Source: Asterionella formosa | Taxonomy: Eukaryota | DNA length: 43,093 nucleotides | Direction of reading: 5' to 3' | Assembly: GCA_002256025.1 (NCBI GenBank) | Contig: NKIB01014467.1 | Coordinates: forward strand, 1 to 43,093 | Part shown: in pieces, positions 1 to 22,178 of the stretch | Layout of the letters: the number at the start of each line of letters is the position of its first letter | Position numbering within the stretch: the first letter of the stretch is position 1 | Made by a program: the position numbers and the translations under genes | The notes under the pieces: model-generated | Told to the model about the DNA's origin: nothing | Databases searched by the model: none | Seen by the model: only the letters and a program-made list of their open reading frames with translations

Positions 1-126
1 GTTTTGATTTTGTCGACGAGCGAGGCAGAACGACTATTAACGGCGGGCGGAATCCCTGGTTTTGAATTATATTCTCGTTGTAATCAACAAGAAAATAATT
101 TGATCAAACGATTATCTTTTTTCTGA
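1..126 (+). CDS. Possible 3' end of an upstream gene
   Basis: Frame 1 is open from the window start: VLILSTSEAERLLTAGGIPGFELYSRCNQQENNLIKRLSFF*. It is protein-like but no family was recognised. Confidence 0.25.
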   Translation, partial: VLILSTSEAERLLTAGGIPGFELYSRCNQQENNLIKRLSFF

Positions 127-457
127 TTATGGCTGTGCGCAAACGCGGTGATGATTCATGCTGTTTTACCTACAGCCGGGTACTCGTTGGAATTTAAGTA
201 GCTATGATACCATCTTCTCGGTTGATGGCAACAGAATTTTACCGGTATGGTAGTAATAAATGTACCGGTACTGGGGAACGGTATCAGATACCGGAGGTAC
301 CTGGTCAAGAAAAGAGTCGAAGAGGTCCAAAACGCATTCTCCGGTGTCGACAAATTCTTCTTAACGTACCCGGTATGATGATTCGGCCGGCCAGCCCCCA
401 GATCTTCTCAGAAGTCAGTTCTTGCGTGTATCTACTGTACCGATAGTGATAGTGCCA

Positions 458-478
458 GGTACCTGGTACCTGGTACCA
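458..478. repeat. GGTACCW heptamer tandem repeat (3 units)
   Basis: GGTACCT GGTACCT GGTACCA read directly from the sequence. Confidence 0.9.
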
Positions 479-920
479 GTCTAATTGTTTTAAATTTATA
501 CTGTGCGTACTTACCACTTACCACACTTGTATGCATGCATCAAGAATTACTGTACATTTAACCCAACGTAAAATTCTAATAGGTATTCCATATTAGCAAT
601 ACAGGATACATACCGTAATGATTACGTTGCCCCCGGTACTTTGTGCTCGTCAACTGGAGGGGTGATATGGCTATGCGGCTGTATATACGGTATTGCTCTT
701 GATATGACTGTGAATACAGATGCACATTTACCGTATATTACTAGATTACCCGGTAGAAGAAGGTTCATTGCTTCGATTTCCAGCAAATCATCATACCGGT
801 ACCCATTGATTGTCCTCCCCCCTAGATCCACTCATTGCCGTTGGGATCCCTGCAAGTTGTCACTTGCAACAAGCCCTTACTTTATTATCGCGAAGATATT
901 ACATTGAACTACATTCTGTC

Positions 921-934
921 GTGTGTGTGTGTGT
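921..934. repeat. (GT)7 microsatellite
   Basis: gtgtgtgtgtgtgt read directly from the sequence. Confidence 0.8.
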
Positions 935-1148
935 GGCCGAACGATTGATCTTGCCGCCACGCATAAATACGCATCCGCCCGCCAGTACTCGGTCCTTCTT
1001 TCGTGGAAGCCCGGGTTCCTTGCAAGGGCTGGAACAATAACACTGGTACAACTCTAATTGTACAAGCAACTCAGCGAACCAAAATTTCATCAGAATCTGT
1101 GAGCGGATCATCAATCAGATCGACCAATCGTTTAGTGGCATATCAGGA

Positions 1149-4100
1149 ATGGCCATGAGTGACGACGCGGAGGAACGAAAGCGCAAGCGCCTCGAGGCTT
1201 GGAGGAAACGACAGCAGGGCAGTACTCCAGTTGTCAAAGTCACTCTATCCTTGGGAACAACAGCCAAAAAGGCAAAACCAAAGTCACGTGTTTCTGTCTG
1301 TTCCAATCCATTCGGAGAAGGCGACGAAGATGAAGAGCTCCCGAACCGAAAATCCATGGGATTTCATTTGGACGATGACAAGGAGGACGGAGGCGACGAT
1401 AGCTGGGAGCAACAAGTGCCGGTAAAGAAGCGCCGGCGATGGGACAGCCAGCCTGAAATCAGCAATATTGGTGACGCACTTGACAAGTTCATGGAAAAAC
1501 TTGAAGCAGACGACACAGTGACTACGCAAGAAACAAGTTTGAGCATTGATATCAGCGGATCGATGATGCGACCAATCACTTCAAAGATTCGCACGCCGCT
1601 GAGTGGAGGTGTCATTACCCCAGAGCAATTACAACAGTTGAGTAGCGGTGCCGCCTACAAAACTTCAAAAGATCCGGATGCCCTCTATTCAGCTAGTGAT
1701 TGGGAAAGCGATGCTCAAGGGAATTCAAGTGAACCCGAAACGGACGATGACGAAGAACAGCAACGACGAAAACTCATTGAAGCTCTCAAGTCTGCCCCGG
1801 GACCAACTGATGAAGGGGAAGATGTTGAGGTCTCAAATCGACCAGCTCAACTGGCGGCGGAAGTCAAGACGGAGAAACAGCGACGAGAAGAACGGTTTAG
1901 AGAACTTGAACGAGAAGCCGAAGCTGCCAAACGTTCAGCTGCATCAGAGTCAGACTTTGGGAGGCTATACAACGATGGTGAAGGAGGCGTTATGGAAGAA
2001 GCCGAGCGCAACCTAGATGCCGCTATGGGAGCACCAGATGCTTTGGAGGTCTTGGCAGAACTTAACAAGAAGAAGGAACTGAAGGCAGTGGATCACAGCA
2101 AGGTGGACTACATTCCCTTCAACAAGAATTTGTATATTGTTCCAAGGTCACTTGCTGCGTTAACACCAGATGAGGTCGCAGATCGCCGTGCAAAGCTCAA
2201 GGTCAAAGTACGCGGACAAGGAGCCCCAGCTCCAGTCTCAAGTTTTGAAGAATGTGGGTTATCAGAACGTCTCATTGGAATTTTAGAGAAACAAGACATC
2301 AAAATGCCATTTCCAGTGCAGGCGCAGTGTATCCCTTGCATTATGGCTGGCCGTGACGTGATTGGTATTGCCAAGACTGGTTCGGGAAAGACACTTGCAT
2401 ATCTGTTACCATTGCTTCGGCACATTTCCGACCAGCCTCCGCTAGGGCCACAAGAATCTGGCCCTATTGGTTTAATATTGGCACCTGCTCGAGAACTTGC
2501 GTCTCAAATTCATTCAGTGTGCAAATTTTTTTCCAAGCACCTGAATTTAAAGTGAGTTATTTTGGTTCTGCCAATTTTTGAGAAGTACCACAATTTCTCT
2601 AACCATGCTTTATTACTAACAAGGCACAAAATGGCCATATCACGTGGTTGCTAACACGGGCGACAGAATGATGTTGTCGACTATTGCTTGAACTTTTTTG
2701 TTGTTATTTGATTCTTTTCTCATTCATTTTTCCTTGTTTCCTTCTTGCAGGTCAACGGCTGTATATGGTGGAGCTGCAGTGGCGGAACAAATTGGAGAGC
2801 TAAAACGAGGAGTTCACATTGCAGTTGCTACTCCTGGCCGTCTCATTGACATTCTTACCATGCAATCAGGAAAGCTTTTATCACTTCAGCGAGTTTCTTT
2901 CATTGTTTTAGATGAAGCCGACCGTATGTTCGACATGGGATTTGCTCCTCAAATTTCAGCTATTATCTCGGCTGTCAGACCAGATAGGCAGACAGTGTTG
3001 TTTTCAGCTACATTCCCCAAAACGGTGGAACAACTGGCAAGAAAGTCACTCCTATTCCCCATCGAAGTTTTAGTCGGCGGTCGGTCAGTCGCATCTGATA
3101 ATGTCACGCAGTTCGGCGAGGTCGTGGAGGAGGAGGATAAATTCCTTCGGCTGCTGCAATTGTTGGGTGAACACGTCGACGAGGGCAAGAAAGTGATCGT
3201 CTTTGTGGATACTCAAGTCAAGGCTGACAATGTTTTCGAGCAGTTGCTTCGATGTGGATATGTCTCGCTTTCGCTTCACGGTGGAAAAGAACAGGAAGAT
3301 CGCGATTCCACTATTTCTGACTTCAAAAGAAAGGATGGTCCCTTAGTACTCGTAGCCACTGGAGTGGCTGGACGCGGTTTAGATGTGCCTTCGTGTGGTT
3401 GCGTCATCAATTTTTCGCCACCGAATCACCTCGAAGCCTACGTACATCAGGTGGGTCGCACAGGTCGAGCGGCAGCTAAGGGATTTGCGTTCACCTTTGT
3501 CAATTCAACTGACGAAGCCAAGTATGCCCCAATCATTGTACGAGCACTGAGCGAAGCTGGACAATCCGAGAATATTCAGGCCGCCCTGAAGGAGCTCTCC
3601 ACTGACTTCAAAGAGAAGGTCAATCGCGGTGAAGCTAAATATGCAGGTTCAGGGTTCAAGGGCAAGGGATATTCATATGATTCTAATGAGCTAAGCGACG
3701 CGCAAAAACTAGCACGAGCTGAGAGGCGGCAAGCATTAATCGAAGCTGGGCTTTTGGATGCTGACGACGACGACCCGTGTATCGAAGCCGACAAGGAAAA
3801 ACCAAATGCCGAAGCGGACAAGCCTTCAACTGCAGAAAGCAGAGAAAAAGAAGCTAATATTGCCACTGCCATGAATGCTGCCGAGATGCAAAAGTTGACA
3901 CCTGAGCTGATGTTATTGCCGGGTATGAGAGAAGCAATCCTTCGTAAGGCAGGAATTTTGAAGGATGATGACGATGAGTTGTTGGATCCAGGAAGCAAGC
4001 CAGTGCAAATGGGTCCGAGTCATTACTTACAAGAAGTGGAGATCAATGATTATCCTCGTGAAGCTCGCTGGAAGGTAACTCAGAAGGAGACTACCAGCCG

Positions 4101-4341
4101 ACTACAATTTGAATTTCAGACTGCCGTGACACTCAAGGGTAGCTTCTTTGGTCCAGGCCGCACAGTTGGCGATGGTGAGCGTAAGTTGTATCTTCATTTG
4201 GAAGCCAAAACAGAGCAGATTTTGAAGAATTGTGTCCTCGAAATACGAAGGCTCCTGAACGAAGAAACACTCCGGGTGAGCGCTAGACAAGCAGGTGGTG
4301 GGGTAGGTGTGTCGTCCCACAAGTATAGTGTTTTAAGTTAG
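1149..4341 (+). CDS. PRP5: DEAD-box RNA helicase Prp5/DDX46 (U2 snRNP / branch-point recognition); 2 exons: 1149-2551 and 2751-4341
   Basis: Q motif (PFPVQAQCIP), AKTGSGKT, PARELA, TPGR, DEAD, SAT, GRGLD and HQVGRTGR. N-terminal RLEAW, DALDKFM, and C-terminal EINDYPREARWKVT are typical of Prp5/DDX46. Intron 2552-2750 (GTGAGT...TTGCAG) joins the two ORFs in frame (HLNLK|STAVYGG). Confidence 0.93.
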
Positions 4342-4439
4342 ATATAGTATAGTGCTTATACAAATGACTTCAATGTACAACCACTCAGAACGAACAATCT
4401 TCCTTATCAAAAAATATCTATTCGATGTCTAACAATACT

Positions 4440-5387
4440 TTATACATTATTTTCGCTAGTTTGTTGGGCCCTTCGTTCTGCCGCTTCCAGCATGGCTGCC
4501 TTGGCATCCGTCTTTCCTCTGGAGGTGCTACCCAGTGTTCGACCTGATCCTGCAAATGCAGGTGTACTAACAGTTGGTGGTGATGTGTTGGTAGAAACAC
4601 CACTACCCGAAGGCACAGCGGTCATTCCAGTGCTACTACCGGTACTGGATACCCCATGATCTCCTGTCGCAGCATGTCCGACCACCCATCCTTCGCGTTG
4701 CGTAAAGTTGACTAGAATTGACTCTTCCCATTGACGAAACCTTGAGGGATTGACTTTGAGTCTGTCCAAGTATCCGTAACCATAGGCATATCCAACACCA
4801 ATAGAAATCAAGTATCCAGCAAGATTCCCCCCTCCAACCAGCATAAACAATAGCCAGATTGCCAATGGATAGTACAGTGTGGGTACTTGGAAAAAGAATA
4901 ATTTCCGTTGTTCATTTGCAGGTGCTTTGGAGCATTCGGAGGCGATGATGCCAAAAAGGACGGTCCATATGCCTGAGCTCTGCCACCAAAGATAGCCTTG
5001 GTCGTTGGAAGCAAACGATAGTAGTAGACATAGGCAGCAAAAGATCAAATTGGAGATGAATGCAATGGTGAGCAGGAGCCAAGCAAAGGCGGTCGATCCC
5101 AATGAATGCTCCAATCGTTTTCCACTATCCAAAAAGCTTAGATACGCAAAGATCAGACTCAAAGTGCTCTGACAAACAAGTGGACTCAAGAGAAGACGGT
5201 ATATTTCGAACCTGTAGATTGCAAAGTGGGGTATAGTGTCGAGGGCGTATGATGCGTCAAGAAAGAAAGAAAGGAACCAAGAGCAAAGGAGAGTTGTTAG
5301 GGTGTATCTAGTCACTAACGGTGTATCTCGCACGAAGGATTCATAAGCAGACAGAATAGGGTTGGGAGGTGGGGGACCAGATGACAT
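4440..5387 (-). CDS. Rhomboid-superfamily (Derlin/rhomboid-like) membrane protein, probably catalytically inactive, with a C-terminal p97/Cdc48-binding tail
   Basis: TPLVTR start, EIYRLLLSP (WR-like loop), LEHSLGS and about six hydrophobic helices. Tail contains FAGSGRTLG (SHP-box-like) and KAAMLEAAERR (VIM-like). Confidence 0.8.
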   Translation of the reverse strand: MSSGPPPPNPILSAYESFVRDTPLVTRYTLTTLLCSWFLSFFLDASYALDTIPHFAIYRFEIYRLLLSPLVCQSTLSLIFAYLSFLDSGKRLEHSLGSTAFAWLLLTIAFISNLIFCCLCLLLSFASNDQGYLWWQSSGIWTVLFGIIASECSKAPANEQRKLFFFQVPTLYYPLAIWLLFMLVGGGNLAGYLISIGVGYAYGYGYLDRLKVNPSRFRQWEESILVNFTQREGWVVGHAATGDHGVSSTGSSTGMTAVPSGSGVSTNTSPPTVSTPAFAGSGRTLGSTSRGKTDAKAAMLEAAERRAQQTSENNV

Positions 5388-6306
5388 GGCTTATTAATTG
5401 GTAGGCGCCTTTCTCTTGCTTGTTGTCGTTGCAAGTGAGCACGTCTCAATCTCTGAATTAAGAAATCCTAATAGCTGTTGATCGCTTTTAGATTCGATTC
5501 CATCTCGTCACAATCACTGGAAGTAGCTACCTGGTACCGGTACATACCTTGTACAACAACCACAAAAGGCAACCGTCTTTATGATATGGGAGTCATGATC
5601 ATGCCGGTATACGCAGTATACAGTACTATCGAATCTCTTTATGTGAATATCTTCATACCGGAATATATATCATAATCCTATGTATTTTATTGGTTGTTAC
5701 ACCATATCTTTTGTTCATCACAACTGAGCATGTTTCTTATCATGATAAAAACCATGTTATGTCGTCATTGCGTTCCTCCAATTCAAGTTTTGATCATAGG
5801 AGCGAGGGCTTGCAACAGCTGGCGTCAATACACAAATGTCGCATACTGGTATAGTATGTTGTACATATGTGCCCACCACCAGGCGAAGTGGTGCAACATC
5901 AGCTGCATCCAACTGGCTGTCTCGCATCATCATCACAATAATCATCGCACCATCTTTTCAATAAATACACTAGACCTCCGGTATGCACGTACACTACATG
6001 ATAAGCAAATCATAAAATTGAAAGGTCCGCTACGATCATTGCATTGCCATGATGACAAATGGTTATAGCCATCCTTCCATTCGAATTGCTTGCTAGGTCA
6101 CGATATAATTTGATGCTACTTTCTTGCCATGCATGCTTCGAACCAGACACCATTGAGAGTTCTCGATCATAGGAATACTACGATATATATATATATTGAT
6201 GAATTGAAATAGGTCTGAATCCGAGTCCAATAACTGATTGTTGTTTGTTGTTCCAACGACCGTAGACTTAGCTCAAACAACCCGATTCTGTTAGCTTGGC
6301 TGCAAG

Positions 6307-9036
6307 ATGGAAGGTAACGGTTCGCACCAGAAAGACCAAGCCAAGAGTAACGATGTATCCAAGAAACGAAAGCTAAAACCGAGCCCTTTTAGAATCAAGA
6401 CTGGTGTCATTGCAGCTCTTCGCTACCGATCTGACGGCAATCGGCTGGTTCGAATTAACAAGGAAGAACCGTCACAATCCAATTCCTATACTGAGGTTTG
6501 GGCAGATCCACAACCTGGTCGAGAAGAAGGTATGGCCTTGATTGGGAGACGAATACGAGGGGCCTTTCCAAAGTCTATTTTGGAGGGAGGAGTCGTTGCG
6601 ACAACTCGGGTGATTGAGGGAGAAATCATTTCCTTGATCAATTACGATTCTCAATGGGAAGAAATTAGGCAACGGAGGCGTCAAAGGCAGCCGATTGGAA
6701 CAACCGTGGAACTCTTGGTGGACAGAAGCGTGTTGTCAGCGATCCCCATGCTTCAGCGAACGGATTGTGATTTGGACAAGAATCAGATGAATGAGATTGA
6801 AAAGACAAGATATGGATACGAAGAAAAAATCAGAGGAAAAGATAAAGTTGTTGTAAAGGTATGCTTGTCTGACATTAGCAAGATTGCCAGCAAGGATGGG
6901 ACTCCTGCGCACAACGATTTCATGGTGGCGCAATGGAAAATTAGAAAGAGAATTCCAGTTGGGACCGTCGAAGAAACAACGGAAATTTTTAATGGGGAAG
7001 TTGGTAAGAAGAGGATTAAGCGAAAAAAGATCTCGCAGACCCAGTTCATTGGAGATTGGAATGATCCACCCAAAACGCAAGAACGAAATTGGCGATGGAT
7101 GGCTAGTCGAACTACCGAATTGGGTGTGCTGGGACGACCTGACGAAGAGGTATTTGTTGGGGAAGTACTGAATGTAGAGCCACAAATTAGTGGCGAAACA
7201 ATTGCCTTTGTCACCCTGCGTCGATTGGCCTTTCCAGAACATACTCGCACTGGACGGAAACCCTACCATGGAAAGAACGATGTTTATGATCTTGATGGAG
7301 ATTCTGCGGGTCCCTTTAGAGTTCCAATTGAAGAATTAGTTATTGTTCACAGAAAATTTGAACGGGAAAACTACGAGTCGAGGAAACGGGACCACTCTGC
7401 CTTCCCAGTGGTTCGCTACAAGTACATGGAGAAAGAAAATGTTTTTAGGCCAATAATTGTCCACAAAGGCGAAGTTGGTGGATCTACTTGTCATCGGTGT
7501 AGGATGAATTCATTGTCAAATGAGAAATCAATGTGCTCTGATTGCACCAAAATTATTAGACCATATCGAAAAGCCTTTGCAACGACACTCGCTGACGCTT
7601 GCGACTGCAGAATCTGCACAAGAAAAATTGCACATCGAATGGAAGAAATGTTGAAAACAAATCTTCATATGGCAGAAGATATACTTGAGGGGGAAGAAAT
7701 TAAAAATGAGGAGTGTGATCGAGAAAAGTCGGCGATTTGTTGTGTTTGTTGTTTGTCTTGTACGTCGGGTGTACAATGCGATATGTGTCCTGTTGTGATG
7801 CACCAGCGATGTTTTGTGTGGGGTGGACGTGTCGATGGGAAAGATCCCGAGGAAACTCTCTGTCGATCTTGTTCATTTGAAGTTCACGCAGATGATATCA
7901 ACCGCGAGGACGCACTTGCGAAAGCTACGTCATTGGCGAGAGCCATGTGTCCCATTGATTTCGATTTACCGCCTAATTTCTTCGATCCCGGCATGTTGCC
8001 CGTTCCGTCGCCGAAGGCAGTAACTTCAGCCAAGGATAAAATGACTGTGCTTACATTAACTCCGAATGGGAAAAGGAGAGGGCGACCCCCAAAGTCTGCT
8101 AAATCGGAAATTATCGAAGTTACGGCACAATCGCAAACCCCAATTGCAAAGAAAAGAGGACGACCACCAAAGTCTACCAAAAAAGAAAAGGAACCCCAAG
8201 ATAATCAGTCCGTTCCTTCTCTTATATTTCCTAATGAAGAAAATGACAAAGAATTCCGACCAGCTTGCAGCCGGACGCATCAATATGACCCAATTACGAG
8301 GCGTTTCAGTGGAATTCCAAAGCATCAAAGTTCCCACGTAATTTTTGGGAGGCCTGATACTCGCCGGAATCATCGGAAACAAGGTGAAGATGAGTACGAT
8401 GATGACAAGCGAGCGACTGGTCGAGCAGCTCGAGCCAGTCAGCGTCGCGTGATGAAGGACATTGCCAAGTTTGGCTCATCGAGCATGGAACTAGATGCAC
8501 TGGCAAGTCGTGAATCTCAGCTTCGTTTCGATCGAAGTGGAATTCATGCATGGGGAGTGTTTGCTGATGCAGATATCAATACTGGAGAGATGGTGGTTGA
8601 GTATCGTGGTGTCCTTATTGGTAACGCCATGGCTGAGAAACGGGAGAATGAATATGAGCAGGCCAAAATTGGAAGCGACTACATGTTTCGAATCGACGGT
8701 TTCAATGTTTGTGATGCAACCAAGCATGGAAATGTTGCCCGCTTCATTAACGCTAGTTGTGACCCGAACTGCTACACAAAAATCATTACCATTGATGGGA
8801 CAAAGCGTATTGTAATCTACGCCAAGAAAGATATCAATACTGGGGAAGAACTCACTTATGATTACAAATTTCCTCTCGAATACAACCAGGAAAAGCGAAT
8901 TCCGTGTCACTGCGGAACCAAGGAATGTCGGGGTTTCATGAATTGGGATAAGCGTTATGTTGTAGTACCGTTGAAACCGCCAGAGGAGAAAGATTCAGTG
9001 CGAGCTGTTTCCAATAAGCATCCTAGTGATCCATAA
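6307..9036 (+). CDS. Set1/COMPASS-type SET-domain histone (H3K4) methyltransferase with BAH-like region, PHD-like finger, two AT-hooks and post-SET
   Basis: SGIHAWGVFA, VEYRG, YMFRID, DAT.HGNVARFINASCDPNC, GEELTYDYKF and post-SET CHCGTKECRG. n-SET RxxxRR motif (RASQRR). AT-hooks KRRGRPPK and KKRGRPPK. Cys-rich CCVC...CDMC..VMH..C...CRSC. Single long ORF. Confidence 0.9.
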   Translation: MEGNGSHQKDQAKSNDVSKKRKLKPSPFRIKTGVIAALRYRSDGNRLVRINKEEPSQSNSYTEVWADPQPGREEGMALIGRRIRGAFPKSILEGGVVATTRVIEGEIISLINYDSQWEEIRQRRRQRQPIGTTVELLVDRSVLSAIPMLQRTDCDLDKNQMNEIEKTRYGYEEKIRGKDKVVVKVCLSDISKIASKDGTPAHNDFMVAQWKIRKRIPVGTVEETTEIFNGEVGKKRIKRKKISQTQFIGDWNDPPKTQERNWRWMASRTTELGVLGRPDEEVFVGEVLNVEPQISGETIAFVTLRRLAFPEHTRTGRKPYHGKNDVYDLDGDSAGPFRVPIEELVIVHRKFERENYESRKRDHSAFPVVRYKYMEKENVFRPIIVHKGEVGGSTCHRCRMNSLSNEKSMCSDCTKIIRPYRKAFATTLADACDCRICTRKIAHRMEEMLKTNLHMAEDILEGEEIKNEECDREKSAICCVCCLSCTSGVQCDMCPVVMHQRCFVWGGRVDGKDPEETLCRSCSFEVHADDINREDALAKATSLARAMCPIDFDLPPNFFDPGMLPVPSPKAVTSAKDKMTVLTLTPNGKRRGRPPKSAKSEIIEVTAQSQTPIAKKRGRPPKSTKKEKEPQDNQSVPSLIFPNEENDKEFRPACSRTHQYDPITRRFSGIPKHQSSHVIFGRPDTRRNHRKQGEDEYDDDKRATGRAARASQRRVMKDIAKFGSSSMELDALASRESQLRFDRSGIHAWGVFADADINTGEMVVEYRGVLIGNAMAEKRENEYEQAKIGSDYMFRIDGFNVCDATKHGNVARFINASCDPNCYTKIITIDGTKRIVIYAKKDINTGEELTYDYKFPLEYNQEKRIPCHCGTKECRGFMNWDKRYVVVPLKPPEEKDSVRAVSNKHPSDP

Positions 9037-9628
9037 TGCATACAACTTGAGTAGCCAAGGGAACATCAAGTTGTTAAAAATCTGTGATAAAATAGTAACC
9101 ATTTGAGTAATCTTATTTCCATAAGCAACCAAATACATTATGTGCAAGTGGACACAAAAAAGACATCGCCTCATCCAGATGAGATGAGATAATTGATTTC
9201 CATGGTTGTCAATTACATTCATAGAACAGAATCCCGTTATGATAGCTATAATAACTAATACATGTTTTGGAAATAGCACAGTTTCGTGGTCATGTCAAGA
9301 GTTCGATCCTGAGGAATTTTTCACGGGCATTGCTGGCAGTACCAGGTACCATGTACCGTATTCTACCGGTACGTTGAAGTCTACCGGTATTTATGTATTA
9401 TATTTGTATGTACCCCTATTCATAATTTTATATTCCAGGTAAACCGTAGGCAGTTTCATCCATTTCGACACAGCCGAGTTCCCGTTCCAACTGAATTGGA
9501 TTTGTTATCGTCAGTGCGGCAGGATGATGGCTGATATTTTCCAAAGGAGAGTACCAGGTACTGTATATCGGTAAAGGTATATTTTCCTTGGACTTGTCGA
9601 GGTAATACATTCCCATTTGCCAACAACC

Positions 9629-12307
9629 ATGACCATCAGCAGCAGCGGAGACGAAGCCCAAAGTCACGATTGGTCAGCGTATTACGACGACAGCGGACAG
9701 CTTTATTATTACAATGCTGTTACGGAGGAATCAAGCTGGACTGCACCGGCAGAGGGCTTCCACCCGGCACCTCCACCGGAAGGCACAGATCCTGTTGTCG
9801 ATTATACATCGTCACAATCACAACAAGCAGTTGTAGTAGATGCTCAGGATGAAACGCAAGAAGGAGGCTCGACACCGACTCCGATGAGTCCGGTTGGTGG
9901 TGGTTCGGAACCGGAATCTGACGACACGGTATCGTCAGACGAGGATTCGTCTCAAGGAGGGGCAGACGACGCAGCCTCTAGTAGTAATGCTGGACAAGGC
10001 GACCATGATGCTGCAGTTGATGAACTACCTGTCGCTGCCACAGTTACATATTCCTCCGGTTGGGTGGCTTATCATGACGATGAAGGCAGAGAATACTATT
10101 ATAATGCAGAAACTGGGGCTACACAATGGGAAAAGCCTGACGATGAAGTACTCGACCAAGCACATACTGCGGAAAAAGACAGTGACGAAGCGATAGAGTA
10201 TGAGCTGACTCGAGTAGAAACTACTCCTCCACAATCACCGTTCATTGAGGAAGAACCTGAACGCGTACCAACTCCAGAGCCGGAGATTGATCCGAAGGTC
10301 AAGCGCTTGCAGGATGCAGAAGCAGCACTCAATTCGCCAGACAGTATCCTCGAATTGGGCTGTATCGATAACGTCAATATTCTACTCCAAGAGTTGGGAG
10401 GGTCAGAAGGAGGTCAGAAGGCCATGCAATCGTTGGTGAATAACTTTCAAGGCCAAACTGCGATCTGCGGATTGCTCTGTCAATGGCTGACAGAAATGAA
10501 GGTTCCGGACGAATCAGAGGATGCACTTGAGGAGGCTGCTGACGATATTCGAGAGAGTGTGCAGGAAGTCATCAACAAAATTGCAAAGGAAAGATTCAAT
10601 AAAGCGGTAGGGGACAGTATTTTCAGGTTGAAAAAGGCAGAAGCTGTCTTTCTGGATGAAATGATGGAATCGGAGCGATGGCGAAAGTTGCTGATTGACT
10701 TGTCGGCGTCTAACAAAGACAGCACACTATTAAAGTTCTGTTTGAAATCCATCTCCAATCGAGGGCACCACCGAGAAATTATTAAGCGAATTAACCCGTC
10801 CGATCATTTCGCGGTATTCAATGCCATGTTAGCGTCGGAATTTGCCGTAGTAGGGAAAATTGCTTTTGGCTCAACAAGTGATCTCGATACAGCCCTGGGG
10901 ATGAGCGAATTGGTGGAAGACTTGAGGCGAACGTGCACCTCTACCGCTTATACCTATATTTATGCTATTGAAGTCCTTAGGTACCTGATAGAGGAGGCTA
11001 GTCATTTATCTGATCAAGGACAAATGCGAGAAGCTATTCGCAAATGGGAACGCATTCAAGAAGAACTCGAAAACGCAATGATGGACCCATCCGTATCTTC
11101 AACTACTGCAGGATCATCCAGCTTGTTTAGAAAGAGGAGACTAGATATTGCATTGACAATCAGTGAGCTTCAGCAGCAGCAACGTAGACGACTTGATCCA
11201 ACGGTTTCAAATGTTGACCGTCATGACAACGAGCGCCACCATAATTCTTTGGAGACCGCGGTACTAGGACTCTTGAGGAAGAGTGCGATGGGCACTCAGT
11301 TGGATGACAATAATTTGGATCAGCTGCTACCAAAGAATGGTAGTGATGGGGGTGAGGTTGGAAAATTATTGATTTCACATCCCTTAGCCATCAAGGCTCT
11401 ATTGGGACACCTGTTTAAGCCTGGATCGACAAGAGTGCTTTCGTTGTTGACAAGAGCGAAGTGTGCACACCTTATAGCCCTTGCTGTTATGGCTGCCGAG
11501 AAGGTCTCAAATGAATATTCGGGGAAAGGAAGCCTAGTAGGAATTACTGACAAGAAGGCCCATGAGGAGGAAATTAAGGGCATGCTATTGACGGGAAGTC
11601 AAATGTGTGAGCTCGTTGAAAACATGGTTTCCTTTACTGTGTCGTCAAAAATTGAGGAGAATAATGCAAGCGCGGGCATGAAATTATGTGCCTTGGCTTT
11701 AAAAAGTGCTCCAGTAGCACAAGGCGTTATAAGTTGGTCCCTCGAAGTCGTCCGCGGGTCTGATTTTGTAACTTCTGCGTCATACCCAACTCTTTCCCCT
11801 TGTATTCTCGGTTTGGTTCGGATTATCGCGTCAAAACATCCATTTACGAGACGCACAGCTATGGATGTTGCACTTACTTTCTTGGGCCATACCAACTCTG
11901 AGATTTCTTCGCAAAAAATGAACAGCCTGAAGGAACAATCCTTACGCCTATTGATAATTTTACTCTGCAAGGGAGAAGCAACGTCGGTTTTTGGCAGCAT
12001 TGCGGCCTTATTGAACGCGCAGGGGACTTCTGTTATTGATAGCTCCCTTCTTCGGTATTTTGTCAGCGGGCTTCTCGACGTTGTAATGCCACCTTTTTCG
12101 CTGGTCATGATCCGGTCAATGGGTGCCATGTTATCAACGAAACCATGCATTGAAGCCGTTCGATCAACCTTCTTCGGCGATGTGAACCAGGCTAGACTAA
12201 ATAGTATTGTTGATAGATTCAGGGAATCGGTTCAAAATGACGAGGCTCTGAAGGCCAACGCAAACGATAAGAAGCTTGTATCTCTTCTCGTCGCATCGTA
12301 CTGCTAA
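9629..12307 (+). CDS. Negative elongation factor C/D (TH1-like) homolog with two N-terminal WW domains
   Basis: First ATG at 9629 (the ORF track starts at a TTG). WW1 is DWSAYYDDSGQLYYYNAVTEESSWTAP and WW2 is GWVAYHDDEGREYYYNAETGATQWEKP. The body has TH1/NELF-C/D-like blocks in order: DSILE, GLLCQWL, RFNKAVGDSIF, FLDEMMESERWRKLLIDLS, LLKFCLKSISNRGH, TYIYA, IDSSLLRYFV..LLDVVMPPFS. Confidence 0.8.
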   Translation: MTISSSGDEAQSHDWSAYYDDSGQLYYYNAVTEESSWTAPAEGFHPAPPPEGTDPVVDYTSSQSQQAVVVDAQDETQEGGSTPTPMSPVGGGSEPESDDTVSSDEDSSQGGADDAASSSNAGQGDHDAAVDELPVAATVTYSSGWVAYHDDEGREYYYNAETGATQWEKPDDEVLDQAHTAEKDSDEAIEYELTRVETTPPQSPFIEEEPERVPTPEPEIDPKVKRLQDAEAALNSPDSILELGCIDNVNILLQELGGSEGGQKAMQSLVNNFQGQTAICGLLCQWLTEMKVPDESEDALEEAADDIRESVQEVINKIAKERFNKAVGDSIFRLKKAEAVFLDEMMESERWRKLLIDLSASNKDSTLLKFCLKSISNRGHHREIIKRINPSDHFAVFNAMLASEFAVVGKIAFGSTSDLDTALGMSELVEDLRRTCTSTAYTYIYAIEVLRYLIEEASHLSDQGQMREAIRKWERIQEELENAMMDPSVSSTTAGSSSLFRKRRLDIALTISELQQQQRRRLDPTVSNVDRHDNERHHNSLETAVLGLLRKSAMGTQLDDNNLDQLLPKNGSDGGEVGKLLISHPLAIKALLGHLFKPGSTRVLSLLTRAKCAHLIALAVMAAEKVSNEYSGKGSLVGITDKKAHEEEIKGMLLTGSQMCELVENMVSFTVSSKIEENNASAGMKLCALALKSAPVAQGVISWSLEVVRGSDFVTSASYPTLSPCILGLVRIIASKHPFTRRTAMDVALTFLGHTNSEISSQKMNSLKEQSLRLLIILLCKGEATSVFGSIAALLNAQGTSVIDSSLLRYFVSGLLDVVMPPFSLVMIRSMGAMLSTKPCIEAVRSTFFGDVNQARLNSIVDRFRESVQNDEALKANANDKKLVSLLVASYC

Positions 12308-12410
12308 GCTATGTGAGCGTGGTGATAGGGACCCCAACGAACAACGGAGTTGAAGCCACACGTAGTGAAGGTTTAATGGTTTTTAATCATAAAATTTCGC
12401 AGCCAATCTA

Positions 12411-15400
12411 TTACTCGTCGTGACCTTCCTTTCCAGCGGCTTTGACGAGATCCGCAAACATTCCACCTCTGTCCAAAAGCACTTGTGGTGTATCAAACTC
12501 CGCGGCCTGGCCATCGTCCATCACTAAAATGAAGTCGGAATCCATGATTGTATTGATTCTATGTGCAACAGTTATGGTGGTTGCGTTGGCAAACTCACTT
12601 CGCATCACAGCTTGGATGCGTGCATCTGTATCTGCGTCGACGGCCGCTGTGGCTTCGTCCATGATCACAATGGTGGCCCCACATAAAAGTGCACGAGCAA
12701 TTACAAGCAATTGGCGTTGTCCAACTGAAAAGTTGCTGCCCCCATCATGGACCTCGTCCTCAAGATTCCGGATTTGGGCATTGGCCATACTCGAGAGAGA
12801 CATGCTCGACGATGATGGTTGCAACGTCGTGTACAAGCCAACGCGTGTGAGCACTTGGTAGAGCCTCGTGTCATCGAATTCTGAAAAGGGGTCCAAATTA
12901 GTCCTAACCGAGCCCGAAAACAAGACAGGATCCTGTGGGATTACTGCAATCTTTGAGCGAAGCTTTGTCAAGCCCAGAATTCTATGATCCACTCCATCAA
13001 TGATGATTTTTCCGTCGTCAAGCTCAACAATCCGAAGAAGGGCCACCATCAATGTTGATTTTCCTGTAATTTGGTTTTGGCGATACTATTAGCCAGAAGC
13101 ATTCAACAAAATGATGATACATTCACAGAATGACATGTGTACGAACTTACCAGCGCCGGTTCGTCCAACCACGCCGACTTTGCTTCCTGCGGGAATATTT
13201 ATGTTGAGACCCTTAAGTATCAATGGTAGCCCCGGCCTGTACCTCAACTTTGACCCAACAAATTTGATTTCGCCACCTGTCGGCCAAGTAGATTCAACCA
13301 GGTCATCCGACGGGGTATGCCTAGGAGCCTCACTCTTGATTTGACAATACTGTTCGATGCGTTCAACGGCAACCATGGATGCTTCGAGGTCACTTCCCAT
13401 TCTTACAATCCAATTCAACGACTGTGTCACTGAAAGGGCATATGAAATCGACAGGCCAGCGAGAGCAGCAAATCGCTCGTTCCCCCCTTGTTTCTTGTGT
13501 TGCAAAACGGAGCACAAACATGCAAAAGTGATGATAAGAGTACCCACAAGTTCTAATCGTACGGCCAGCCAACATTGTGCAGTCGCTGTAAGGAAATAAG
13601 CATGTTGCTGACGGTTAAGCATAGCATTCAAACGATCTGAGAGAGTGAGTTGTGCTGAGTAAGCTCTGATCGTTGATACTCCATCGAGCGTCTCTCCAAG
13701 AAGAGCGTAAATCGGTGACCGCCAAACCGAGTCAAGACGCTTCAGCTCCCTGTAGGTAATGGTAAAGTAAGCCTGTTGCATTAAGTAATAAACGATAATA
13801 GGGATCAAGCACGCGGTGAAGACCGGCGTTACACCAGATATCACAGCAATAGTGCAAATCACAGAAAACAAAGTTGCAAGATAGCTTCGAAGCGAAGACG
13901 CAATATTTTCGTCAACTGTATACATATCTGTTTGTGGGGTAGAGACAAGCAGAGAAGATTGAGAGAAAATGATCAAAATGGCAACCAACTAGAACGATTG
14001 AGTTGCACTCACCTTTGCTGAATCGATTAACAATACGACCAATAGGCGTCGTGTCGAAGAAGGACATAGGAGCTTTCAGAATTACAGATAGCAGGCGATT
14101 GAAGATTTGGCGTGATGCTCTCAACCCACATGCCATTACCAAAATAAGTCTGAAAAGAGTCGAGATGATGGATGCAAGATTGATTAGAGCATAAATCATG
14201 AGGAACTTCGCTTGGCTCTCACTGCCAGCGTGTTCTGACCAGTATGTCAACCACCACTTCGATACGACATTAATAAATTCCACAAACGCATATGATGCAA
14301 TAATCGCAAAAGGAGCCCAAATACCTCCTGCTGCCCTGCCCCACGCTATGTAGATTTTCAAATCAACATGGCCCGATTCTCGTTCCAGTATTTCGTCAGT
14401 CATGAGGACTCCAGACGGTTTTGGTGTGTCGTTCGCGACGGGCTTTTCTTCAATTACTACACTTGATGCAGTATCCGAAAGATCAGTCTCATCGTCTGCG
14501 GGCAACATTACCTCTATTGACGTATCATCGGAAAGAGTTAGGTCTTGAATGGATTCAACATTCAAGCCTTCTGTAGTAGTTGGTGAAACACCAGTTTCAG
14601 CCATTACGGCAAGAAATCTAGAAAAAAGTGTGTCATTCTTACTGAGCTCAGCGTATGATCCCTGTTCAACCACTCGACCCTCGCGAATCACCATGATACG
14701 GTTAACGAGTGGATGTCTCAAGTATTGAAGCGCATTTGTAACGAGAATAACTGTCTTTTTTCTGTGAGTCTCTCCATCCTGCATTTCCCTCTTGGCAAGA
14801 AGGAGCTCGTCAATTATGCATTTTTGGAACAGGTGTTTCCCGACGTGCGCATCAACTGCCGCAAGGGGATCGTCAAGAAGAGCAATATCTGCAGAATGGT
14901 ACACCGCACGCGCAAGAGCCACACGGGCTTTTTGTCCACCACTCAGGGTGATGCCTTTCTCGCCGATTTCTGTCTGGTCACCGGCTGCAAGTAACTCGAG
15001 GTCATGGAGAAGTGCGCATGAACGCAAGGCACGCTGGTACTTCTCCTCATCGACAGGCTCATCACTGTGCCCAAAGAGGATATTTGCTTTCACCGTGTCA
15101 TTCATTATAAATGGGGTCTGTGCAAAGTACGAAAGGCATCCATTGACGGAAGTGCTCCCAGAAAGCTCTCTTATTTCTCCCAAAATAGCATTAATAAAGG
15201 ACGATTTGCCGCAACCGACCCCACCTATGACTGCAACGAGCTCGCCTTCCTTGCAATCAAAGTTAATACGCTTCAAGCACATGAGGCTTGAAGATTGTAC
15301 TTCTTCTTCGCTCATTTTCACATCATTGAATGAGCTGCCTTTTTTCACCAGTTCCTTGATACAATGTTCGGCATCTTGTAATTGCGACCTGAGGAGTGTT

Positions 15401-16966
15401 ATCTCCCATTGCTTGTCAGCTAAGGCTTTTGTTTTGGGATCAATATCGACACCATACAGTTTCGGTTTCTTGCTTTCGTACGCATAGGAGGCATTTATGA
15501 TGCGAATGCCTTTTCCGTCAAGATCACCTTTTTGAATAGGAGAATGTTCGTCACAGAGCAAAAATGATCGAATGCGCTCCATTGATACACCAGCTTCGAC
15601 AATGTTGTTTATCACTTGGGGCAGCATGAATAGTGGGAAACGAAGGATATCAAACAACGCAAGCGATGTAAGGGCAGATGCGACTTCCAGCTGGTGCCCC
15701 GACCAAATGTATGCGGCAAAGGTGGCCAAGGCAACAGCAAGTGGTGTGGCACTCCACAACATGATGCTCAACGAGTTAAAAATAATATAGCGCCAAAGTT
15801 GTTTCAACTCAATTTCACGCAGGGCAAGAACACGATTCTCAAATGATTCTTCCCAAGCCTGCAGCTTAATGATCTTCATGCTTCCCAAGACTTCGCTATT
15901 GACTTCGACTCGCTTGTCCTTGGCCGCCATTAGTTCTCGCTGCATTTGTCCCATCCATTTTGCAACAGATTTTGTAATTGGCATCATGATAATAATGACT
16001 ATGAAATGCGTTATTTGGTGAGATTTTTAGGCGACAAAAAATGGATGCAAATACCAAACATTTTCTTACCTACTACGCCACCGAGACAACTGGCACCAAG
16101 TTGTTGAAAGAGAAAGTATAGGGCAAGCGCGATTTGAACAAATGAGTACCAAACCGCATGGAGATCTGATGACAAAGGTAAGAAAGTAAGCCTAAAATAT
16201 GCCACAAAACTCTAAGTCGAACCATCAAAAACTCACATGTCGTCAAATCTTGCATACGCTGGGCATCAATGGACATGAGATTGGTAATTTCGCCGAGCGT
16301 CCTTATCTGTCGTTCTGCCGAGTTCAAAACAAGGGCCTTCCTGTATACAGCAACTACTACAGCGCTTCTAATTCTCAACCCAGTCAAGTAGCAATTGAAA
16401 AAGTAGTGTCGAAGGCAAAAGCTCATCAAGAGCTGTGACACCGTGACAGCAGCAGTCAGCCACAGCCCTTCAGTGAGTGGTGCGTTGGCGTCCCGCAAAA
16501 AGTGAATGAGCCCATTCAATACTTGTGGCCCAACAAAGATAGCGCAGTCGTGTATTAGCTTAAGAAGTCCAGCTCGCATGAAATCCGCCCCAAATGCATA
16601 GAACAGAGCCCGAACAATGGATGGCGGTGCTATTACTGACGCCGCGCTTGGGTCCTTGGCCTTTTCTGCTTCCCAGTACGTATTGAATTTTTCCAGCACA
16701 TCCTCAGTGCTGCAGTCCTTGGGAAATTTTATACAATTAAGATCCTCGGGGTCTAACTTCTGCTTCACGTTCCCAATCTCCAGAACGGGCGAAAACCAAT
16801 CGAAAATGAGCTTGGACCAGATGGAAGCATTGGCGGGTCCACTGGGAATCTCCGCAGGCGCATCGGTCTTGCTCGATATGAGAGGTGCCGTCTCGGTCAC
16901 GCATCCAGGAGGGTCCGTGTTGCACTCGCCATTCTCGGGCTCAATACTGCCGTAGGTGGAGGCCAT
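12411..16966 (-). CDS. ABC transporter subfamily C (MRP-like, short form without TMD0); 5 exons: 16966-16237, 16165-16070, 15998-14013, 13927-13151, 13063-12411
   Basis: NBD1 GGVGCGKSS, EIGEKGITLSGGQKAR, LLDDPLAAVD. TMD2 APMSFFDTTPIGRIVNRFSKD, RELKRLDS. NBD2 GRTGAGKST, IPQDPVLF, NFSVGQRQL, MDEATA, AHR. GT-AG introns 16166-16236, 15999-16069, 13928-14012 and 13064-13150 each restore the frame. Confidence 0.95.
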
Positions 16967-17503
16967 GGCTCCCTGTTGAAATCGGAATAGAAACGAATAC
17001 TGCACTGCTATGAATTGTTTAGATTTCCAACAAGAAATTAGCTACCGGTAAAGCACTTTGATCTCAACCATGTGGACTATGAAAATATGATAGCTAAAAC
17101 AATACATGTCGTCTGCTACATAAGGTAGTACAGGGACTCTACATAGCACTCCGAGCAATACACCTGGCACTGGTACCAAGGAATTTTGGGTAGACCACCT
17201 TTTTACTTAGGAAAATATTTAGCTAAATAAATCGATGGCCAGACCTTCCAACAGGTCCCTGACATACCTGCAGCAGAGGTCGTAACAATATATACCGTAT
17301 CGGTATGTACAGATGAGTGTAAGCAAAATGCATCAGTAAATCCCACGACAATTTACTCCATTTAATTAATCTACAGATGAGGATTGCATTTATCATCATT
17401 GCGCTCACTATTATCTACGTGTCATCCTCATTGCTCGGTGTTGACATCAATTAGCTAATTGGTCACCCTGTTCATATTACGACTTGACTGATCCACCATC
17501 ACC

Positions 17504-18651
17504 ATGTACAGAACAGCCACGTTGATGCTGTCAGCCAATAAGCGACGCTCTCTCGCTCTGAGTGTGCACTTCAAACAGCCTTCGTTTGGAATGACAGACT
17601 ATGAAATTCTCTCCAGAGCGTCGGCATTTTTGGTGTGGATCGATCCGCCGGATCCAGGGAAGGACAAGAAAGGAAAATATTCGGACTTGGAACAGGCTAT
17701 TAAAGAACGAGAGAAAGTGCATCGGATGCAAGAGCGCGGGAGTGAGCCGGCTGGGGGGCCTCGGCGAAATGCTCCAGAGTTGTCGTGGTTGGAGTTTTGT
17801 CCAAGCATATTTCGACCCAGAGTGCACTGCTTTGCTAGTTCGCATGTACTGTCGCCTTGGTTATGGCCCAAATACTATAACCATGAATGGTTGAAGGAAG
17901 TCAAACAAGAGCACTGCATTTACTCCTTGGAAGTGTATGACGACGAGGAGAACTCGTTGGCCAAGGTGGCCCTTTCTCCGTATGTCATTCATCATCCGAA
18001 CGAACTCGATCTCGGCATGATTCACTTGAAAAATGAACAAGAGACACTCAATCTGCTAGAAAAACTTGATGTTCAAATATTTCACATGCGAGACGACGAG
18101 ATTCTCTTTCAAAAGGATGAGGTGGTGCACTTTGATGGCTTTTGGATTACTGAAACGGACGAAACGAAAACCGAAAAAGAGAGCGATCAGGATACTCGAA
18201 TCTTTCACCATTTTGAGGAGGCAGGGAACCTCATATTTGCATCCACAGAAAGAATCCTTGCCTCGACACAACGCCCTCTGCCGGAAGGAATGTGTGGAGG
18301 CCCGGCGATCGACAAGTCTGGAACCATTGCTGGTATTGTGGAAGGAATTGTTCCTGTCAATCACACAGACAAAAAAATGGCTGGAGCAGCCAGCATGATA
18401 CCGTCGCCGCGTATCAAAGAGTTCATTGACTATGCGGAGCGCATCATGCTACAGCAAATTGTACCATCTGATGTGTTCGAACAAGTGGTTACGATAAAAT
18501 CAGGCAAGGACATTGGGCACGACAAGAATGAGTTAAATGTTGAGGAATTTGATATACAAGACAATATCAATGATGTTATGGAACAGATGAAAAAAAAGTA
18601 CTCCACAGAGGAAGTTGAAGCAATTAAAAAAACCGTTGAACGAGAAAAGGA
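17504..18651 (+). CDS. Trypsin/chymotrypsin-fold peptidase-like protein with Cys at the nucleophile site; 3' end lost in an N gap
   Basis: ASAFLV (GSGF-like strand), FASSHV (His), ELDLGMI (Asp) and PEGMCGGPAIDKSGTIAGIV (GxSGGP equivalent). Basic, hydroxyl-rich N-terminus. The ORF runs into the gap at 18652. Confidence 0.7.
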
Positions 18652-19168
18652 NNNNNNNNNNNNNNNNNNNNNNNNNNNNNNNNNNNNNNNNNNNNNNNNN
18701 NNNNNNNNNNNNNNNNNNNNNNNNNNNNNNNNNNNNNNNNNNNNNNNNNNNNNNNNNNNNNNNNNNNNNNNNNNNNNNNNNNNNNNNNNNNNNNNNNNNN
18801 NNNNNNNNNNNNNNNNNNNNNNNNNNNNNNNNNNNNNNNNNNNNNNNNNNNNNNNNNNNNNNNNNNNNNNNNNNNNNNNNNNNNNNNNNNNNNNNNNNNN
18901 NNNNNNNNNNNNNNNNNNNNNNNNNNNNNNNNNNNNNNNNNNNNNNNNNNNNNNNNNNNNNNNNNNNNNNNNNNNNNNNNNNNNNNNNNNNNNNNNNNNN
19001 NNNNNNNNNNNNNNNNNNNNNNNNNNNNNNNNNNNNNNNNNNNNNNNNNNNNNNNNNNNNNNNNNNNNNNNNNNNNNNNNNNNNNNNNNNNNNNNNNNNG
19101 ACTTTAAATGAGTTCCACCAGACATGACTACTACAAGTCTCCTTGCCAAGTATACGACTTTCTCGGTA

Positions 19169-21637: not shown

Positions 21638-22178
21638 ATGGAACACACGTACGACAAGCCTTTTGACAAACTACCGGTAAGTGAGACGTGGTTTAAATAT
21701 TTCGGAACAAGGACACTTGTTTTATTTTCGAACGATTGACTTTGCTCAAAAGCAAGGGGGTCGGACGCTTTACCGGTAAATGCACTCCCTTGTGCATGCA
21801 TTCCAGCATACAATAGACTACCGTATATACCGGTAGACTACCGGTACCGGTATGTTGGTTTATCAGTCGTGAAGTTTTGATCCCAATCGTTCATTAGTGT
21901 TCTTAATCTGGTGTACCAGGTACCTGGCAACAACCAGAACGTAGTGTACATACCGGTACGTATTATTGATTGAAACGTGATAATGCAGTGTCAAAGCCGA
22001 GCTACAGTTTACATACACAGTACCGGTAAACACTGTTATACTCTTCCAACATTTTATCACAGATTAAGTATAAGTACATGTACAAGAAAGTGAATCATAG
22101 TTTATCCGTCCTCATAAACGGTTCGCATCAAGCGCAACGACAAATAAATCCTATCCTCATTCATTCACATCAACATTC

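Follow-up and report, generated by a model that had tools for sequence, protein, structure and literature searches.

The 43,093-nucleotide (nt) stretch of DNA from the freshwater diatom Asterionella formosa analysed here (contig NKIB01014467.1, referred to as the window) carries on its plus strand a gene for the helicase Prp5/DDX46, whose coding region is interrupted by a single intron with two alternative 3' splice sites. The proximal acceptor at position 2623 is genuine: it defines an intron of normal local size and yields the major assembled isoform. Since this isoform ends in a premature stop, the main assembled transcript of the Prp5 gene in this diatom is unable to encode the helicase. 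We regard it as probable that competition between the proximal and the distal 3' splice site of this one intron throttles Prp5 by unproductive splicing. The best-supported reading of the sequences from relatives is that the arrangement recurs across many diatoms, though not all.

The proximal AAG at 2621-2623, which lies 21 nt past a CTCTAAC motif and closes an intron of the usual size (72 nt), would be the default choice. Its use keeps 127 nt of the interval, shifts the frame and ends the reading frame at codon 478, within RecA domain 1, so such an RNA is unable to make the helicase. Prp5 would be encoded solely by transcripts that reach the distal CAG at 2748-2750, and the ratio of proximal to distal splicing would set the helicase output. 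We infer that the window species does form the distal junction, that it controls the ratio, and that selection keeps the arrangement as a homeostat for a dosage-sensitive spliceosome factor. Prp5/DDX46 is an essential and dosage-sensitive gatekeeper of branch-site choice, and self-limiting splicing loops are known mainly for SR and hnRNP proteins of animals and plants.

The Prp5 gene and its assembled transcripts

The gene extends from the ATG at 1149 to the stop codon at 4339-4341 and is interrupted once, after base 2551. When base 2551 was joined to base 2751, an open reading frame (ORF) of 997 amino acids (aa) was obtained. Exon 1 (1149-2551, 467 codons plus 2 bases) encodes the N-terminal region with the sequence DALD at residues 109-112, the Q motif, motif I (GSGKT) and motif Ia; exon 2 (2751-4341) encodes the rest of the DEAD domain, Helicase_C and KH_12. 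Judged by its protein matches, the gene is an ortholog of DDX46/Prp5, since the exon 2 product was best matched in PDB by human DDX46 (399 bits), ahead of yeast Prp5 (224), DDX17 (221) and DDX42 (215), and since the three expected Pfam families were recognised. PF00270 (DEAD) was detected on both exon products (E values of 1.3e-19 and 4.7e-26), PF00271 (Helicase_C) with an E value of 5.7e-27, and PF23469 (KH_12), the C-terminal KH-like domain of DDX46, at residues 427-505 of the exon 2 product (2.5e-10). Residues 305-467 of exon 1 align to residues 312-474 of human DDX46, and residues 3-355 of exon 2 to residues 478-822; therefore the 2551/2751 junction is collinear with the human protein and zero residues are lost. 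The N-terminal block DALD..FM (residues 109-115) was found to be nearly invariant in 45 diatom sequences, with D109, L111, F114 and M115 present in all and D112 in at least 90%. By resemblance alone it may correspond to the yeast DPLD motif, by which Prp5 makes contact with SF3B (PMC5238730).

The RNA data used here are public runs stored as assembled contigs. The gene is present in 20 runs, 19 of which are recorded as RNA, and four of them, from four studies, were compared with positions 1-18600 of the window: a lake metatranscriptome (X3), a poly(A) library (X5), a freshwater metatranscriptome (X7) and an organism-labelled run whose library kind was guessed (X6). The joint 2551>2624, which skips 72 nt with GT..AG ends, was found in three of the four runs, at a depth of 354 in X3, 98 in X6 and 25 in X7, so that an isoform with a premature stop, as unproductive splicing would produce, is present in RNA. 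From base 2624 the contigs continue unbroken into exon 2, over 2624-4367 (X3), 2624-4295 (X6) and 2624-3305 (X7). The bin depth across 2481-3100 in X3 and X6 equals that of one contig minus 72 nt, therefore no second assembled path exists there. The contigs of the poly(A) library end at 2552 and resume at 2631; the junction fell into this gap and was thus uncaptured, and the stretch 2631-4089 is contiguous, so 2631-2750 is joined to exon 2 in this library as well. No joint to 2667 or 2751 was found in the contigs of the four runs, which lose minor variants and leave the absence of such joints unproven. The first-pass annotation of the window, which was based on its letters, had proposed that splicing uses both upstream acceptors, at 2623 and at 2666; the former is borne out by three of the four runs and the latter has no contig joint.

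In the same runs the neighbour gene on the minus strand was cleanly spliced at each of four introns, which measure 87, 85, 71 and 71 nt. The size range of 71-87 nt that had been predicted for the other introns of the window is thus supported by RNA contigs for these four. Contig coverage of Prp5 exon 1 begins at 675 (X3), 800 (X5) and 1219 (X6). With the first ATG at 1149, the contig starts at 675 and 800 indicate a leader of at least about 470 nt, and a (GT)n run lies near 916-934 inside this leader (window 675-1148).

The proximal isoform contains an ORF of 477 aa that ends in ...KHKMAISRGC and is closed by a TAA at 2652-2654, 9 codons past the 2551>2624 junction, which itself lies 28 nt upstream of the stop. 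In animals and plants, nonsense-mediated decay (NMD) of the exon junction complex (EJC) type follows the rule that a junction is present downstream of the stop. Since the Prp5 gene has a single intron, whose junction lies upstream of the stop, EJC-type NMD of the proximal isoform would not be expected. The earlier description of this RNA as an NMD isoform is therefore doubtful, the more so as assemblies of poly(A) and of total RNA both contain the isoform in abundance. The cell might nevertheless sense its 3' untranslated region (UTR), which would measure about 1.7 kb, and the abundance in both kinds of assemblies would be compatible with weak decay. If decay is weak, the helicase output would therefore be lowered by the splice choice itself. 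Frame-shifted or read-through translation over 2624-2750 was considered and rejected: the exon 1 frame stops at 2652, the exon 2 frame opens only at 2692, and the length of the segment is 1 mod 3.

Signals within the 199-nt interval

The interval between the exons (2552-2750) is 199 nt long and reads GTGAGT...TTGCAG. CTAAC starts at 2599, at 2616 (within a perfect TACTAAC at 2614-2620) and at 2651 (within GCTAAC at 2650-2655), and the AG dinucleotides of the interval are at 2622-2623, 2665-2666 and 2749-2750. These motifs, the long interval and the stops behind both upstream acceptors had been pointed out before, and all were recovered at the same positions. The 72-nt proximal intron (2552-2623, GTGAGT..ACAAG) is the part that is removed in assembled RNA, and the 127 nt of 2624-2750 are kept; the stop of this isoform lies inside the third CTAAC. 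A splice to the second internal AG (2665-2666, a CAG), with 2551 joined to 2667, would give a protein ending in ...K-MMLSTIA, and full retention of the intron would place a stop directly after the K. The last part of the interval, 2692-2750, is a pyrimidine-rich tract with the distal acceptor CAG (2748-2750), which is required for the full-length protein.

The clustering of CTAAC exceeds chance. The motif is under-represented in the window, with 39 occurrences on both strands compared with 56.8 expected from shuffles, and about 0.09 would be expected per 195 positions. The Prp5 intron is the sole place in the 43-kb window where at least three CTAAC fall within 199 nt, here spaced over 57 nt, and three were reached in 32 of 100000 shuffles of the intron. 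One of the three TACTAAC in the window lies in this intron. None of the four RNA-confirmed introns of the neighbour gene holds a CTAAC, and the branch candidates there are of the loose CTNAY kind.

The first-pass annotation had noted that the distal acceptor has a long pyrimidine tract and no CTAAC nearby, and had regarded it as a weak productive site. The description is correct, and the verdict of weakness is not supported. Since CTAAC is absent from all four confirmed neighbour introns, its absence near 2750 is the local norm, and the distal site has a CAG, the longest pyrimidine tract and YTNAY-type candidates (TTGAT at -39, CTCAT at -28 and TTCAT at -24). The distal acceptor is thus ordinary by local standards, and the oddity of the interval lies in its upstream half.

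A branch-point adenosine needs a minimum distance of roughly 10 nt from the AG. The perfect TACTAAC is an unlikely branch point for the acceptor at 2623, as its adenosine (2619) is only 4 nt before that AG; the motif overlaps the region of the proximal 3' splice site. For this reason the CTCTAAC at 2597-2603, whose adenosine (2602) precedes the AG by 21 nt, probably provides the branch point for the 72-nt intron. TACTAAC-type motifs are binding sites of SF1/BBP and also of STAR-type proteins, and by its overlap the TACTAAC could aid or hinder the use of the proximal site.

An RNA structure that might serve as sensor was considered as well and rejected. The fold of the intron is no better than that of shuffled sequences (minimum free energy of -43.1 compared with -42.8, z -0.08), and Rfam gave no match in the intron at E values up to 1, the three sub-threshold matches in 1-6000 falling elsewhere. 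Nor does the AG-free zone 2667-2748 point to a distant branch point: such a zone is not unusual, as the ten longest stretches of the window that lack an AG measure 94-145 nt.

Internal acceptors in other diatoms

Relatives were collected at the protein level with two queries, and clusters were assigned to lineages by the best BLAST match against named proteins. For N-terminal halves, exon 1 residues 300-467 were compared with proteins of 256-818 aa, and the best 120 of 2141 matches were analysed. In 91 of these 120 ORFs the tail reads '...LGL-K-stop', as is obtained when translation runs into an intron starting with GT[AG]A in the same codon phase. Nine are productive (K-STAVYGG), and 20 have other tails. 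Seven of these 20 start with N (AAY), and in nine the K is followed by a codon whose first base cannot be T; these 16 tails therefore cannot stem from a retained GT intron and need an internal acceptor, as 15 of the 20 still do when GC donors are allowed. The tails of P0027, P0100 and P0117 enter exon 2 out of frame and, like the assembled RNA of the window, retain the 3' portion of the intron. Eight N-half clusters carry an mmetsp label: seven are truncated with tails other than K-stop, one is a productive fragment, and none ends in K-stop.

For C-terminal halves, exon 2 residues 1-200 were used as query and the best 120 of 6416 matches were analysed. Among these ORFs 75 begin within the 3' end of the intron ('..R/STAVYGG', where the slash marks the splice junction, AG/G), 41 start in exon 2 and are uninformative (they include P0105, which is productive), three have exon 1 homology, and one is of another kind. 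All five mmetsp-labelled ORFs in this set start in the intron 3' end, and one of them comes from Ditylum brightwellii. The two halves can be found on one RNA: P0027 (g.3775) and P0318 (g.3776) are both encoded by the MMETSP transcript Transcript_2111, an assembled poly(A) transcript with about 104 nt of intron between its two ORFs.

The clusters with internal acceptors are nearest to Pseudo-nitzschia, a Chaetoceros-like MMETSP protein, Eucampia and Epithemia/Amphora. These protein comparisons show, at the level of predicted ORFs, that isoforms with internal acceptors or partly retained introns recur in several diatom lineages. The intron-derived tails of four Pseudo-nitzschia-like proteins (P0024, P0028, P0036 and P0063) are alignable with each other (..LLVEGF.RL.SDR..), hinting at conservation inside the retained part of the intron within that clade.

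Genomic relatives were sought in metagenomes with the generic helicase patterns AKTGSGKTL and MAGRD[VT]IG, which gave 80 loci. L001, the sole close DNA relative with the intron among them, is Chaetoceros-like, its exon 2 being 94% identical to an MMETSP0200 protein. Its intron has 222 nt (GTAAGT..ACAG) and holds CTCTAAA and TTACTAAAC (TACTAAA-type), followed 22 nt further on by AAAG/CAATCA at an intron length of 119. Use of this internal AAG is predicted to shift the frame, keep 103 nt and give a tail NNQRTF..., and P0072, an RNA-like sequence 83% identical to L001, indeed ends in NNQPFP and a stop. In a pairwise alignment the internal AAG and the upstream branch motifs of the window (CTCTAAC) and of L001 (TACTAAA-type) are in register; the alignment is suggestive only, as AT-rich pairs may align equally well by chance. 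The splicing event is thus found in relatives as well, through the 16 of 20 tails, the pair P0027/P0318 and the NNQ tail shared by L001 and P0072.

Two more distant loci have introns at other places. L038 (1237-1330), which is AT-rich and 62% identical, carries an intron displaced by one base downstream of the diatom site; it follows LNLR in phase 0, and this offset could reflect intron sliding or an independent gain. L013 (4047-4150), about 53% identical in exon 1, is interrupted some 24 codons further upstream, behind GPIGLIM, and is continuous at the diatom intron site itself.

Competing explanations, known systems and further observations

Several points weigh against an unproductive-splicing throttle. 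The RNA evidence is wholly contig-based, and contigs lack isoform ratios and lose minor variants. Among the relatives, many of the ORFs labelled 'lgn/ena/jgi' could derive from DNA or from RNA. The 120 full-length matches listed for exon 1 residues 300-467 (proteins of at least 819 aa) are all productive at the junction, including annotated genomes of several diatoms, and the presence of MMETSP proteins among them (P0139, P0159 and P0166) means that the unproductive form is neither universal nor exclusive. The intron-derived peptide tails are not conserved as a whole, and the conservation of intron length and CTAAC was judged on one close DNA relative, L001. The orthologs had been expected to share these intron features; internal-acceptor isoforms do recur, and L001 has a long intron with branch motifs, but L030, a Thalassiosirales-like contig of 35 kb (92% identity with a Thalassiosira protein), lacks an intron at this place. 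About 17 full-length ORFs were also found on Thalassiosirales-, Cylindrotheca- and Amphora-like contigs of 6-137 kb, whose gene calls may or may not allow introns. Together with L030 they suggest that some diatoms can do without the device.

One alternative is tolerated mis-splicing, in which a long intron in a short-intron genome happens to contain a cryptic proximal acceptor, the resulting RNA is waste that regulates nothing and enough productive mRNA is still made. It is in line with the intron-less L030, the unconserved tails and the lack of any fold or known RNA element in the intron, and intron retention is reported to be common in a diatom (PMC5859163). We nevertheless consider it rather unlikely, given that the unproductive form is the sole assembled path of an essential gene in three independent studies, that the same type of isoform occurs across distant diatom lineages, that the AAG and a branch motif about 21-22 nt upstream are aligned between the window and L001, and that the CTAAC cluster is statistically odd. 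The 72-nt gap could also be a deletion polymorphism or an assembly error, as the RNA data consist of contigs; with exact GT..AG ends, a typical intron size, occurrence in three studies and contigs at least 99% identical to the window that also splice the four neighbour introns, this would be extremely improbable. Recursive removal of the interval, with the 72-nt splice occurring first and 2624-2750 then leaving as a GC-AG intron, is very improbable too. Positions 2624-2625 are indeed GC, and excising 2624-2750 would recreate precisely the productive junction, but the sequence AAA/GCACAA fits the 5' consensus of five local introns (GTGAGT/GTAAGT/GTAAGA) at +1 and +3 only. A C follows the internal acceptor of L001 (CAA/CAATCA) and the tails of seven relatives start with N (AAY), so no G can be regenerated there. 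Recursive splicing was accordingly rejected, the 5' splice site not being regenerated at the first junction in the window, L001 or the seven relatives.

Two other proposals give the stop isoform or its signals a specific role. According to the feedback model of the first-pass annotation, high Prp5 would direct splicing to the consensus CTAAC and the poison acceptor, and low Prp5 would allow weaker distal branch points and productive mRNA. The logic would be coherent with the yeast genetics of PMC5238730, where prp5 ATPase and DPLD mutations favour suboptimal branch regions. It also draws on the three CTAAC, including TACTAAC, within a stretch of 57 nt inside the gene for the U2-branch proofreader, on their uniqueness in 43 kb and their absence from the confirmed neighbour introns, on the use of the poison acceptor in RNA contigs and on the TACTAA-type motif ahead of the internal AAG of L001. 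Against it, the yeast results, as reported in that source, concern mutant alleles rather than dosage; TACTAAC is too close to the AG at 2623 to serve as its branch point and may rather block use of the proximal acceptor; the sensing could be done by SF1/BBP or a STAR-type protein in place of Prp5; and the third CTAAC may count only as a stop codon. We therefore hold this feedback to be an unlikely form of control. The stop isoform may alternatively act as a functional N-terminal fragment of 477 aa, which would retain the U2/SF3b-binding motif without the helicase core and serve as competitor or modulator. The position of the stop downstream of the only exon junction, which argues against EJC-type NMD, the isoform's abundant presence in poly(A) RNA (X5 and 'complete' ORFs of MMETSP), the near invariance of DALD..FM in the 45 diatom sequences and the SF3B interaction mediated by the yeast DPLD motif, as given in PMC5238730, are in its favour. 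The fragment would end in the middle of RecA domain 1 and may be unstable, it is a prediction from RNA and sequence, its 1.7-kb 3' UTR could yet trigger decay, and intron-less lineages manage without it, which makes such a function quite improbable.

Competition between the two acceptors as a throttle on Prp5 thus remains the favoured explanation. An extension of it is offered as a tentative and rather unlikely conjecture: the CTAAC cluster might be a gauge of branch-site proofreading, by which a fidelity helicase reads its own activity on its own intron in many diatom lineages, and the abundant stop RNA could also give rise to an N-terminal fragment competing for U2 binding. In that case the amount or activity of Prp5, together with U2/SF3b or SF1, would pick between the proximal poison and the distal productive acceptor.

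To our knowledge, the yeast PRP5 gene has no intron. The throttle resembles several known systems as these are outlined in the sources cited. Poison exons and alternative splicing coupled to NMD in the genes of SR proteins, RBM39 and SMNDC1 (PMC11357089, PMC10477243, PMC6547761, PMC2831310) likewise combine a splicing-factor gene, a conserved stop isoform and lower output. The window differs from them in having a proximal alternative 3' splice site in its only intron in place of a cassette exon, a stop past the last junction, an abundant isoform, a core U2-stage helicase as the factor and a protist as host. The DEAD element of the plant genes DRH1/RH46 (bioRxiv 10.64898/2026.01.23.701338) also concerns a DEAD-box helicase gene with non-coding splice variants and is described there as part of a loop by which the helicase gauges how active it is. 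In the plants a conserved RNA secondary structure acts as the sensor and the helicase is DDX5-like, whereas the window intron folds no better than shuffles and has no Rfam match, the candidate sensor consists of branch-site motifs and the helicase is DDX46/Prp5. The decoy exons of SF3B1 intron 4 (PMC6097662, PMC7373989) share with the window a U2 snRNP-associated gene and internal signals that divert the spliceosome. There, by these accounts, the decoys engage the terminal sites unspliced, the whole intron is retained and introns exceed 1 kb; in the 199-nt intron of the window exon 1 is joined to the internal acceptor with loss of the first 72 nt, and the decoy-exon reading was rejected on this ground. 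Proofreading by yeast Prp5 (PMC5238730) involves the orthologous factor, mutants of which alter the use of suboptimal branch regions, with branch-site motifs as the cis element. Self-regulation of Prp5 is not described in the available sections of that paper and was not found by literature searches, which also returned no paper on self-limiting splicing of Prp5/DDX46 or of any diatom spliceosome gene. The Prp5 intron may thus provide a testable entry into splicing homeostasis in diatoms, the handling of an unusually long intron by short-intron genomes and the possible use of branch-site strength as a regulatory sensor. For annotators, it implies that Prp5 gene models built from transcripts can be expected to be truncated or split in many cases.

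Other features of the window were recorded in passing. It contains five runs of N with 2941 bases in total (18652-19099, 25503-25962, 30601-31373, 35364-35745 and 40716-41593), which account for low GC values in its composition. A contig of X6 (7204 nt) and one of X5 (9652-13064) span convergent genes at 9575-12307 (plus strand) and 12283-17041 (minus strand) within 9551-15998, and the 3' ends of these genes therefore overlap or abut in the RNA assemblies. The palindrome TACCGGTA occurs in 23 copies between 240 and 40252 of the window compared with 0.25 expected, a number reached in none of 100 shuffles. Its copies, for example at 240, 263, 794, 5535, 9364, 9382, 17043, 21672-22028 and 36232-36454, are nearly all intergenic to ORFs and often clustered upstream of genes, which makes TACCGGTA a candidate motif for promoter function or transcription-factor binding in this diatom.

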